In this document: positions 272-45,200 of the stretch, one piece after another
How the letters are laid out: the number at the start of each line of letters is the position of its first letter
How positions within the stretch are numbered: position 1 is the stretch's first letter
Assembly (NCBI GenBank): GCA_964016885.1
Contig: OZ024740.1
Location: 231,508,001 to 231,572,000, forward strand
Reading direction: 5' to 3'
DNA: 64,000 nt
Source: Eledone cirrhosa
Taxonomy: Eukaryota
The notes under the pieces: generated by a model
What the model was told of the DNA's origin: nothing
Database searches by the model: none
Seen by the model: only the letters and a program-made list of their open reading frames with translations
Made by a program: the position numbers and the translations under genes

Positions 272-3200
272 CTGAAACAAAAATTAAAAATATATATAAT
301 ACATAAATATATATGTGTATATATGTATATAATAATAATATTATATAAGGGAACAAAGAATCAATGTTGCATCAAATACATATTTAATTATATATTACAT
401 ATGTTTTACTGTCGATCAGCTCGAGGAATTATTGTTTAATGATCGAACCTGACTCTAGAATCGGAAGCTCCTCAGAAATGTGTTAACATGTATATATATA
501 TATATATATATATATATATATATATATATATATATATAATATAAGATCAAAAGATGGTTAAAGGAGTTCCATGTATTTTATTATGCGCATTTCAAAAACA
601 AACATCATCATGCAATAATATTTGTGTTTTCATCAGATAAAACAGGAGAACATGATATGAAGGCTAAAAAACACTTGTGGATAGTGCAGTTTTAAATCAA
701 CATATGTTGATTTAAAACTGCACTATCCACAAGTGTTTTTTAGCCTTCATATCATGTTCTCCTGTTTTATCTGATGAAAACACAAATATTATTGCATGAT
801 GATGTTTGTTTTTGAAATGCGCATAATAAAATACATGGAACTCCTTTAACCATCTTTTGATCTTATATTATGTATACTCCAGTCCTACAAACTGTAGAGT
901 GCTTCTTATCCGATATCTGCATTGCTTTATTGTACTACAATAAAACTCACCTCCTACATTTTATATATATATATATATATGTGTGTGTCATCATCATCAT
1001 CATCATCATTAACGTTTAACGGCTATCTTCCACGCTAGCATGGGTTTAGACAGGAATTGTCCTACTTGAGGCAAGATTGGTTGGGTGACCATGTCTCACT
1101 CGTATAGGGCTGTCTGGCAGGTTTTCTACAGCTGGATGCCCTTCCTAACACCAATCACATTTACAGTGTAGAACTGGAAGGTTTTTACTGTGTTACCTAC
1201 ACGGACACATTATAGTGTGGACTGTGTGTTTTTTTGTTGTGACACCTACACAACCTCATTTATTTAGGACTGGATGTTGTGGCATCAACAGAACTTTACA
1301 GAGAGAGGGTGATGTTAGTGGGAGTGGGGGGTGGGGTGGAGTAGGGGTAGTGGGATGGGGTATATATTTGATTAAGAGGTGCCTACTGACTGTAGGTTTC
1401 GCTTTGAACATAGGCAAGACGGGTCTTCTGTATTACTGCGTAGCGCTAAAGATCTCGGTCCAGTGACATTGTTTTAGAGAGGTGTAAGTGTGTGAGGTCG
1501 GAATTTATCCAATCGTCCTAGGTTTTTCTGGGTCTGCCTACTCCATAACTTCCATCAATTTTGATCGCCCTGCACTTTTTTATACACCTGTCGTCTTTCA
1601 TGCGCATCACGTGACCATACCAACGTAGTCTTCTTTCGAGTAAACAGCATCTGATCCCTCTTATTCCTAGTTTCTCACTTAGATCATTTATGCTTTACCG
1701 TTCGCGTATATTACTATTACACATCCAACGGAGCATGGATGCTTCGTTCCTCTCCAGTCTGCGCAGATCCTCTGCACACAATGCCCATATCTCACTGCCA
1801 TGTAACATTGCTGTTGGTATACAGGCATAATTTTAGAGAGAAACCTTTAGTAGTCAATAGTTGTATAAGCTCTCTGAACTTTTTCCATCCCTTTCTGACT
1901 CTGGCTACTGTACTTTCAGAGCACCCCCCTACCACTGCTGATTTTGTCACCCAGGTAACGGAAGGTGTCCACTATTTCTATAGAGCCATCTGGGCAATAG
2001 AAGGAGTTAGTATCCTATGGGCACTTGCTACTTATTGCACCTGAGCAGCGGCCACATATAAAATCTACATTCTTAGATAGCTTACCTGTGATCCCACTAC
2101 ATCTTTCATGTACCCATAGTTTGCATTTAGGACATATATTGGAATTTCTGCCTACTCCTTTCCTACACACTGAGCATGGCCATTTGCCAGAGGGTACCTG
2201 TACCCTATTTTCCTTTCTACATACTAGAACTTTAGTCTTAGACAAGTTAACTTTAAGGCCTTTTGATTCTAGGCCCTGCTTCCATGTTTGGAATTTCTGC
2301 TCTAGTTCAGCCATCGATTCAGCTATGAGCGTTAGATCATCTGCATAGAGAAGTTCCCATGGGTCATGAACTCCTCTGTTATAGCCTGAAGGGCAATAAT
2401 AAATAGGAGGGGGCTAAGGACAGAGTCATGATGAACACCAACTTTTACACTAAATTCTTCACTATATTCGTTGTTAATTCTAACCTTACTGACTGTTTCT
2501 TTATACATAGCTTGTATAGCTCTCACAAGCCATTCATCAACACCTGGTTTTTTAAGAGCCCACCAGATAATGGAGCAGAGGACTCTGTCAAAGGCTTTCT
2601 CCAAGTCAACAAAAGCTAAGTATAGGGGTTTACTTTTAGCTAGGTACTTCTCCTGTAGTTGTCGTACAAGGAAAAGAGCGTCCGTGGTACTTTTACCTGA
2701 CACAAACCCAAACTGCATTTCATCTAGATCAACTCGCTCTCTGATTAGTTGCGCTATAACTTTTTCTGTGTCCTTCATGACCTGGTCAATATATTTAATG
2801 CCTTTATAGTTTTCCCTATCTAGAGCATCTCCTTTACCCTTGTAGCAGTTAATGATGATGCTGCTGCGCCAGTCATTTGGTATGATCCCATTCTGTATGA
2901 CTTGGTTTACTATCTGCATGACCATAGTGTGTCCCACCATTCCAGATGCTTTCAGCATTTCAGTAACTATTTCCGAAGGCCCAGCCACCTTGCCTATCTT
3001 CATATCTTTGATTATCTTACTTATTATACTACCTTCGACTTGCACTGCTAGTCCCTCTATTGGGTCGATGTGGGGGAGACTGTCTTTCTCCCATTTATTC
3101 TCCTCATTTAGTAGCCTTTCGTAGTGACACTTCCAAGCTACCTTCTTATCAGCATCAGTGATGGCAAGTACACCATCATCGTTATGGACACACTTCTCCC

Positions 3201-42200: not shown

Positions 42201-45200
42201 AACACTTGTGAATAGTGAAGTTTTATCTGATGAGAACGCAGATATCATTCCATGATGATATTTGTTTTTGAAATGCGCATAATAAAATACTTGGAACTGT
42301 TTTAACCATCTTTTGATCTTATATTATTTATACTCCAGTCCTACAAACTGTAGAATGCTACTTATCCGATATTTGCATTGCTTTATTGTGCTACAATAAA
42401 ACTCACCTCCTACATTATATATATATATATATATATAAATATATATATACTAGCTAAACTACCCATCCTTTGGACTTTTCAAGTAGCTTTTGATGTAGCT
42501 CATTAAACTAAACAAAGTAAATTTGAATACATAGAAGAAACACGATATAACACAATCGAATATAAAAATAAAGATTAATTGTAAAATGTATTTGAAGTAC
42601 ATGTAGCGGTATAACGTTGGAAATGTACAGGGTATGTAAGTTAATAATTAAATTATGTGTCAGAAACGTAGTCTAATCAATGCGAAAAAATAGAATAATT
42701 CTAAACCATCCTTTAGATAAATTTAAGCATAATATTGTAAAAGTTATGAGATCAGTTTATATGAACATCAAGTTTGGCCGAATTAAGAAAGATAACTCTT
42801 GATTACGAAAGATAACTCTTGTCTTACTTAATCACGAAAATTCACACAAATAACCGAAATTTTTTAATGTCTCCAAAGGCCCCAATATCGATTTTTGAAA
42901 GCCTTTGTAGATCATGTACAGGTTTTGTGCAAGGAGAAACTCTGTAAAAAATGTTTTCCTTGCAAGCAGGGAAAAGCGGACGTAAAATGATGATGATGAT
43001 GATGATGATGATGATGATGAGGATGATATATATATATAGAGAGAGAAAGAACAAATGCAAGTAATCATTAAATGCCCTATCTGTACACAATGCACTCAAA
43101 AAACAAAGCCAACAATAAACAAAGCATCTAGTAGACATGACTGTCGGATTCCAAACTCGTAAAAAATACATTCGTAAAAACAAAGCCAATTACAAACTAA
43201 ATATCTATATTAGAACTAAGACATCCTCCACAATCCCTACTTCAGACATCATCCATATATCCCAATCCCTAATCCACTCTAAATATTAGTATGGAGGCAA
43301 CTGACTATTTCAAATTATGCAGTTTCTGTATAAGAATAGACATTATATATCTATTATGTATACTGATGAAATTAATGTATGCAAGATTTTACAGCCCCAG
43401 TATCACTCCTTCATAGTCAGCCTATGAACTTTTCCGCCCACCTTGTAGTAATATGTGTATTTCAATATTTATACTTACAGTGAAAATATAGCTTTTCCAT
43501 CATAACTCTTATCTTCTTCACACTCTACCACTGATGTGATATTTTCAGCAACTGATTTAGGTAGAAGATGGATACCTGAATTTGAAAGATGTATTGGTAA
43601 GAAAAAGTTTACAGTGAAAGACTAAAATATTTTTGGTTTTCTTCCATATATATATATATATATATATATATATATGAAATATATATAATTTCATATAACT
43701 GCTCTGTAAATCATCTGATGTTTTTACATTGAGCTACTTAACTTACTGGTAATAAGGTAGTAATACATTACTGCCTACCACTATTTAGGGTTTGTATAAA
43801 AAATACATATAACTGCATAAGGTTTTTGTATTTACATAACCATAAATAGTATAATTAATACTATATATATATATATATATATATATATATATATATATAT
43901 ATATATATATATATATATATGATGCAAAACTGCTCCTTTTAAAGTATTCATACTTATATTAAAACTTCCCTCATTATTTTATGTTCCAAATAACAGCTTC
44001 ATAATAAGGTGGTAACTCACGAAAGGGTGAGCAGACAGCAGGAGGATCTTCAGAGGGAGAACCCCCACCAAGCAAGTATTTTGGCCCTTGATTCCTCCTA
44101 ACACTCTAAAGGAGCCAAGTCCACCTCGGTCATGACTCCTATGTGTCCTCCTACTGTTTTTTCTCCTCCAGCAGGTGATAAAACCTTAAATATAGATATA
44201 ACATACTAACCCAGTATTATATATATACATATAACATTATATATCAATAATATTAACTTTGCCTTTCATCCTTACGGGGTCGATAAAATAAAGTACCAGT
44301 AATACACTGATAATTGGTGGCCTTGTGCCAATAGTAGAAACAATTATATATCAATAATTGTTTCTACTTTTGGCACAAGGCCAGCAATTAACCAGTGTAT
44401 TACTGGTACTTTATTTTATCGACCCCGTAAGGTTGAAAGGCAAAGTTAACCTCGGCGGGATTTGAACTCAGAATGGCAAGGGCCGTAGCTCTATGCATCA
44501 AAGCATGGCGTCCGAGCCTCTACCCATACTGCCAATCCACCGCCTTTAATATATCAATATTATATATCAATAATGAAATATTATATATTACTAAACATTA
44601 TATATAGACAGTAGGTGGAAACTCATGAAAGGGTGAGCAGACAGTAGGAGGATCTTCAGAGGAAGAACTCCCATCAAGCAAGTGTTTTGGCACTTGATTA
44701 CTCCTAACACTCTAAGGGAGCTGAGCCAACATAGGTTATGGCTCCTGCTGTTTTTTCTCTTCCAGTGGGTGATCTTATTTCCCACACCTGTTGTTTACAC
44801 CATCAGCAGAACTAACACTTCACATCTATTTAAACAGCAATGTTCATGACTTAATATATCCTAACTTAATTTTATTACTTCATTGCTTTAAATCCTTGAT
44901 TGTTTTCAAAATTGTTTAAAGAATATAGACAGACAATTTCATAAGAAATATGAGGGTGGGCTGAAAAGTTTATAGGCTGTCTATGAAGGAGTGATGTTAA
45001 AGCTGTGAAATCTTTCATGCATTAATTTCAACTCTTCTTATTAATTACTGCATTGTTTCTTTCCAGGGACTATGTTGAAAAATAAACCTTATTTGGTCAT
45101 TCCATGAGAGTACCTTGGTCAACCTATGAACTTTTCTGTCGACCCTCATATGGGTTAATATTCTTACCTGTTTGAATAAGATTTTGGATATCCTTTGTAA

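Follow-up and report, generated by a model that had tools for sequence, protein, structure and literature searches.

A 64,000-nucleotide (nt) stretch of the Eledone cirrhosa genome, here called the window (contig OZ024740.1, forward-strand positions 231,508,001 to 231,572,000), carries five short insertions, E1 to E5, in which an inverted arm is followed by a forward arm and a one-sided tail. Do such palindromes form an under-described system of their own, as an initial annotation of the window had proposed, or do they belong to elements that are already known? We find that E1 to E5 are truncated pseudo-long terminal repeat (pseudo-LTR) ends of four high-copy families of Penelope-like elements (PLEs), here called A to D. 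The proposal of a separate system does not survive, because these are pseudo-LTR ends of PLEs that bear open reading frames (ORFs) and whose layout is published, an outcome that the annotation had itself named as telling against it. Typical PLEs are described with an adjacent inverted pseudo-LTR, a 31-bp one-sided tail, junction palindromes and solo pseudo-LTRs (PMC3846280), and both the same structure and a TA-targeting, hammerhead-bearing Hydra clade are described in Craig et al. 2021 (PMC8557442). The architecture is the known end structure of PLEs and A to D are new families, making this mainly an annotation result.

Five palindromes and the elements they end

The arms of E1 to E5 were delimited by self-alignment and exact extension, and the plan of a palindrome with a one-sided tail holds for all five. 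In E1, an inverted family A arm without a tail (536-703, minus strand; hammerhead core 590-636) is mirrored by a forward pseudo-LTR arm (704-871, plus strand; hammerhead of type I with its core at 771-817 and a cut predicted after 825); the two arms are identical, forming a perfect palindrome from 536 to 871 centred at 703/704, which is followed by an 87-nt tail (872-958, plus strand) and then (TA)n. E5, 93% identical to E1 and thus of one family with it, represents a second subfamily of A and joins an inverted arm (42070-42225, minus strand; core 42121-42167) to a forward arm with a ~90-nt tail from 42325 (42220-42416, plus strand; core 42227-42273), the palindrome spanning 42070-42324. E2, E3 and E4 represent families B, C and D. 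E2 comprises an inverted arm (3564-3808, minus strand; core 3709-3737) and a forward arm with a ~60-nt tail from 4050 (3812-4112, plus strand; core 3884-3912), with 88% likeness between the arms of its palindrome (3564-4049). The smaller E3 palindrome (6638-6754, 76% likeness) consists of an inverted arm (6638-6693, minus strand) and a forward arm with a ~78-nt tail from 6755 (6700-6835, plus strand), which retains only the 3' half of a hammerhead (GAAA at 6710-6713, stem III and NUH at 6730-6732). In E4, the inverted arm (17505-17730, minus strand) has an intact hammerhead core at 17577-17613, whereas that of the forward arm with its ~94-nt tail from 17877 (17738-17970, plus strand) is broken; two ~40-nt deletions lie in the forward arm of this palindrome (17505-17876).

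These tail lengths (~87, 60, 78, 94 and 90 nt for E1 to E5) bear out the earlier observation that the inverted arm omits the last ~60-95 nt of the forward copy. The count of four hammerhead-bearing insertions in five also holds, with E1, E2 and E5 bearing a CTGAnGA..GAAA core in each arm and E4 bearing one solely in its inverted arm. The insertions are TA-flanked as claimed, except that the right flank of E3 is a decayed AT-rich stretch with no clean (TA)n. The description of the families as four unrelated ones stands at the DNA level, where the best match apart from the pair E1 and E5 has E = 0.1. It does not extend to proteins: the A, C and D ORFs are homologous, with 30-54% amino-acid identity over tblastn segments, and these families therefore share an origin despite having no significant DNA match.

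All four families run into reverse transcriptase (RT)/GIY-YIG ORFs, in keeping with the annotation's view of the palindromes as retro-insertions. Family A has an intact 800-amino-acid (aa) ORF in a 3,709-nt unit, and in two loci (L161, L162) its tail leads on to a following unit, whose ATG comes after a further 83 nt, forming partial tandem pseudo-LTRs. A third locus (L163) shows the order (TA)n, tail-less inverted arm, ORF, pseudo-LTR and tail; the full-length copy there begins exactly at the unit boundary after the tail (L163:4090-4116), and a poly(A) of ~22 nt lies at its joint with the inverted arm. For family B, an ORF with RT, a CX4CxxC linker and GIY-YIG lies immediately upstream in five loci (L169-L171, L179, L181), one of which (L171) additionally bears an inverted truncated copy, and in L078 the tail runs on into the ORF start as a partial tandem. 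ORF, untranslated region (UTR) and tail are contiguous for family C in L174 and L175, the ORF being 35-42% identical to that of A, and for family D in L178 and L192, where the UTR holds a microsatellite; related ORF ends lie upstream of D in L187, L189 and L190. Among the loci examined, neither C nor D showed partial tandems forming pseudo-LTRs. RT and, at the C-terminus, GIY-YIG share a single ORF, intact in A and recognized in C and D by tblastn to A, and the atlas neighbours of the A protein (0.96-0.98) include GIY-YIG-bearing clusters. Tail-less inverted copies occur together with ORF sequence in four loci (L163, L164, L166, L171). Asparagine-rich stretches were seen in the B ORF (L078, downstream of the tail) and in the A ORF (P0001, residues ~560-660), similar to those described for Adineta Penelope ORFs.

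TA follows the family A tail in 28 of 30 loci, the remaining two reading through into the ORF, and follows the tail in nearly all of the 30 loci each for C and D. A de novo scan of 464 kb on three contigs, the window included, detected 61 local inverted repeats, 33 of which touch a TA run at exactly one end; against a background of 2.1% per random position, this pattern is not chance. In 26 of the 61, the next TA run lies 30-135 nt past the other arm. Across the 3.0-Gb host genome, exact motif matches number 12,086 for A, 13,283 for B and 24,509 for C, while a DNA search with D listed 2,093 candidates at first look, 40 of them scored.

Judged on diagnostic motifs read by eye and not from a tree, families A, C and D agree with the Hydra clade of TA-targeting elements, and B is of the Neptune/Nematis type; Nematis, a first clade guess, was dropped for Hydra on the same motifs. 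The family A protein (RRLRWT/IAY, SDKTNN) has RW and DKT, has lost the K of RWK, and matches published Hydra proteins in a comparison made one motif at a time; the RW/DKT reading covers A, no N-terminus having been recovered for C or D. The CxCX5C linker is CNCRIKNKC in A, CNCPDRSSC in C and CNCRTPTLC in D, the endonuclease motifs CxxC and CxH are CNLC and CLH in A and CNLC and CKH in C, and A has a single cysteine between its GIY and YIG equivalents; this is the Hydra pattern, which has no CCHH motif. Family B instead has a CIDKKCITC linker and VVYSIRCTEGQC..IVYIG, with two internal cysteines in the GIY-YIG domain. A second, related Hydra-like ORF (RLRWRAF, SDKTGN) is present in L174, not tied to the C tail.

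Published Hydra-clade elements (Hydra-1_Obim, Penelope-13_HM; PMC8557442) resemble A, C and D in their single RT and GIY-YIG ORF, the hammerhead in the 3' end and (TA)n targets, as well as in the RW, DKT, CxCX5C linker, CxxC and CxH motifs, and Penelope-13_HM is listed with a 5'-truncated inverted copy. Our families differ in the 3.7-kb unit of A (generally <3 kb in that paper), in the at least 12,000-24,500 motif matches of A and C (the paper reports few families), in tails of 75-95 nt, in the U3-A8 core and long stem III of C, and in a preferred inner stop that is absent from the accessible part of the published description.

Fixed outer ends and preferred inner stops

Arm geometry was read on contig 1 in the 30 pattern matches that come first for each of A, B and C, and in the 30 best DNA matches for D (E4 included), with distances counted from the tail end. 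Inverted arms were detected in 72 of these 120 loci. Their outer ends are family-fixed in 60 of the 72, comprising 14 arms in A (-81..-95), 15 in B (-56..-64), 20 in C (-75..-86) and 11 in D (-94..-103); a fixed arm start in each family, which the annotation had set as a test beforehand, is thus what the loci show.

The inner ends of three families also cluster. In family A, 10 of 14 arms end at -254..-259, at the CATATG where the forward arm of E1 begins, and exact head-to-head joins at this site number 1,791 genome-wide, many with a few added bases. Among 30 inspected arms that reach the site, 13 stop there, and one of 30 fails to continue on its 3' side; the ratio 5,317/14,669 overestimates these stops, because the second subfamily differs in its upstream sequence. 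Family D forward copies begin at -322..-330 in 12 of 30 loci, seven of them without a detected inverted arm, and the joint of E4 sits at this preferred stop. Of the 20 inner ends in family C, 16 lie at -124..-144, within the stem II region of the hammerhead; the alignment is blurred here by native hairpins. Microhomology to ATAT alone was rejected as the cause of the A stop: none of the other ATAT words, at -299, -287, -210 and -173, serves as a 5' end in the 30 loci, even though the joint of L198 lies close to -210. For Hydra PLEs, the accessible parts of the literature searched yielded no family-fixed inner stop; one may be on record in older PLE structure papers, Repbase or Dfam, which lay outside that search. 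The preferred stop common to A, C and D is possibly a new detail.

Both arms of one insertion are of the same subfamily. Arm partners in A differ at 0-6 of 105-167 columns, and a diagnostic segment of C is identical in 14 of 18 palindromes (one counted twice), as opposed to 45 of 306 cross pairings; an origin of the two arms from different source elements is unsupported by this comparison in A and C. Joints vary between A copies by 0-20 added bases. The arms overlap in 9 of 14 A palindromes, while in the other 5 the forward piece ends inside the tail and shares no sequence with the inverted arm.

Hammerheads were located by descriptor, since an Rfam scan of the window returned no hammerhead family, only hairpin-type microRNA models below cut-offs. 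The type I descriptor matched distinct copies of the A pattern (33, partly including a related family), B (25), C (9) and D (25). Longer C copies bear a complete hammerhead, mostly a U3-A8 core variant with a GUC site; this core together with a long stem II and a 5-bp stem III is unusual for metazoan PLEs and predicted to fold as a monomer (L104, L107, L114, L122, L175), and in two of the nine copies the core is a mismatched C3-A8. Published minimal PLE hammerheads (Cervera and de la Peña 2014, PMC4209133) likewise include a U3-A8 variant and opposite-strand pairs 100-700 bp apart, read there as truncated PLEs, and differ from ours in that stem II is longer in A and C and stem III is stable in C. 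Predicted cut sites coincide with neither arm end: they lie between the outer and inner ends, at a family-specific distance from the outer end, and we accordingly rejected hammerhead cleavage as the cause of either.

How the inverted ends may arise

We consider it probable, at roughly 0.75, that the palindromes are 5'-truncated PLE pseudo-LTR ends joined to tail-less inverted copies, formed as both ends of a cut (TA)n target prime reverse transcription, each at its own internal site on the RNA. Established here are the links to RT/GIY-YIG ORFs, the TA flanks, two fixed 3' ends per family and arms of the same subfamily, together with 5' ends that are variable or preferred and joints with microhomology or small additions. 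Under such a mechanism, the GIY-YIG nuclease would cut both strands within (TA)n, after which one cut end would prime at the end of the tail and the other 60-95 nt further 5', each priming site presumably matching the target over a short AT-rich stretch. Both complementary DNAs (cDNAs) would run toward the 5' end of the RNA and be joined head-to-head via short microhomology, a few bases often being added. Many cDNAs of A, C and D would end at one preferred point, a putative transcript start inside the pseudo-LTR, yielding short symmetric palindromes, and the hammerhead would be carried along, setting neither end. Since the promoters of PLEs are located in the pseudo-LTR, the inner stop is read as a transcript start, and it possibly marks the 5' end of the RNA; RT may also stall at this point, especially in family C.

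Priming from a second internal site has a parallel in twin priming of L1, where a second primer gives rise to an inverted 5' piece. The L1 pieces are not known to overlap, nor is their second site known to be fixed, whereas here the second site is fixed and most arms overlap. A likeness is also found in PAc (Poseidon, Anolis; PMC11167929), for which both strands are cut and extended at AT-rich targets and RT starts at two internal sites bounding the tail; PAc is a predicted dimer, and hammerhead cleavage is not needed in vitro. PAc belongs to a different clade and has its tail inside the ORF, whereas the family A tail lies 83 nt upstream of the ATG. The Penelope elements of Adineta vaga and Drosophila virilis (PMC3846280, PMC2377424) share the inverted pseudo-LTR, one-sided tail, junction palindromes, solo pseudo-LTRs and pseudo-LTR promoter, with a tail of 31-34 bp and with target-site duplications that are visible there and unreadable inside (TA)n here.

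The same PLE origin would also allow the inverted arm to form by self-priming, a model proposed in PMC3846280 in which a short palindrome or hairpin lets cDNA or antisense RNA fold back on itself, copying then proceeding up to the fixed second site. The preferred stops of A and D do lie on a CATATG palindrome, with a strong hairpin beginning there in D, L198 joins through an ATATG match inside such a hairpin, and the 1,791 near-symmetric joins of A and the shared subfamily of the arms agree with this route as well. We nevertheless regard it as unlikely, as arms end at the preferred stop though their partner ends elsewhere (L004, L006, L025, L202, L205), the seven D copies without a detected inverted arm start at the same point, and the forward piece of 5 of 14 A palindromes holds no inverted-arm sequence. 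The last observation also bears on the initial annotation, which had suggested priming at a fixed internal site followed by fold-back or template switching: the fixed site upstream of the tail stands, but simple fold-back copying is not the whole story.

Other origins fare much worse. Short non-autonomous ribozyme elements, akin to retrozymes or short interspersed elements and amplified as ready-made palindromes, would match the near-identity and nearly equal size of many A copies and the good conservation of their hammerheads, yet joints differ among copies by 0-20 added bases, arm lengths extend continuously up into the ORF, and no tandem arrays were seen among the loci examined; this origin is largely refuted and very improbable. 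Non-LTR retrozymes, described as tandem hammerhead-bearing monomers without an ORF (10.64898/2026.07.22.740005), were rejected likewise, the copies here being head-to-head or single and continuing into ORFs. Inverted repeats in a TA context could suggest DNA transposons, such as miniature inverted-repeat or foldback elements with terminal inverted repeats inserted at TA, whose signature the annotation had listed as speaking against its proposal. A TA run touched both ends in none of the 61 local inverted repeats of the 464-kb scan, however, and the one-sided tail, the variable 5' lengths and above all the continuation into RT ORFs refute this reading, leaving it hardly any weight. An assembly artefact from fold-back reads could account for the identical arms of E1, but substitutions and indels distinguish the arms of E2, E3 and E5, and the family-fixed ends recur across several contigs, so we give it next to no credence.

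Several points weigh against two-site priming by cut (TA)n ends, or against parts of its basis. The in vitro support derives from PAc, of another PLE clade than A to D, and the tails of 60-95 nt are longer than the 30-40 bp of the published PLEs consulted. Arms that overlap (9 of 14 in A) call for a pair of RNAs or the repeated use of a single one, arms of the same subfamily do not distinguish this route from fold-back or later conversion, which they fit equally, and the short forward pieces could be later deletions. The outer end was untraceable in 10 of 72 arms and included the tail in 2 (L011, L109), and family B has no preferred inner stop, its 15 arms ending anywhere from -107 to -1071. 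On the protein side, the family A product had no Pfam match and a PDB sequence search gave nothing meaningful, its structure predicted from the single sequence reached a pLDDT of 33, the B and D ORFs matched Pfam RT and GIY-YIG models only below threshold, and the clade calls are motif-based as noted above.

Genomic setting and significance

An NRF/acyltransferase-3 (NRF-6-like) gene on the minus strand spans most of the window, from 58675 to below 50; its exon-like frames, nine or more in number, begin at 58675 and continue past 283, and of nine that were tested two matched PF20146 (one above the curated cut-off) and one PF01757 (below the cut-off). These frames bracket E1 to E5, and all five insertions are therefore intronic, as the annotation had supposed, for this window. 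Further PLE remains lie nearby: a TA-anchored palindrome with a ~77-nt tail (27795-27910), a second, older family B end beside frames resembling a Hydra-type GIY-YIG C-terminus (21306-21545 and 21026-21384, both minus strand), and a decayed, nearly full-length PLE of another family (37301-42030, minus strand). The latter shows DKG, YIDD and CxxC by eye, without a Pfam match, as well as a minimal hammerhead core (37400-37423); its 3' end runs into (TA)n and its 5' end shares a TA run with E5. In neighbouring and other contig stretches (L033-L070), about ten more palindromes of the same plan outside A to D, with tails of roughly 40-110 nt, likely imply several further PLE families, and different PLE families are stacked in the same TA runs, one within the TA flank of another (L082, L147, L159, L018). 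The window also contains several copies of an RTE-like long interspersed element with a PHD finger within its RT ORF (2332-3393, 18538-19812, 28491-29954, 33271-35445, 61597-63438).

A further proposal, which we hold tentatively and at somewhat unfavourable odds, is that the short palindromes of Hydra PLEs are run-off copies of a defined RNA 5' end: both ends of a cut (TA)n would prime at two fixed positions within the 5' leader of the element's mRNA, extend as far as the transcript start and be united head-to-head. If true, the promoter and the two priming sites of every family could be charted from tens of thousands of stumps, and counting them could test two-primer against self-priming explanations for the insertion of PLEs. 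The accessible parts of PMC8557442 and PMC11167929 leave open how the inverted ends are made. E. cirrhosa adds four PLE families of very high copy number, three of them from the little-sampled Hydra clade and one, A, with intact ORFs that are usable for biochemistry. Given thousands of young joints, fixed outer ends and a preferred inner end in three families, the question of the inverted ends becomes testable by counting.

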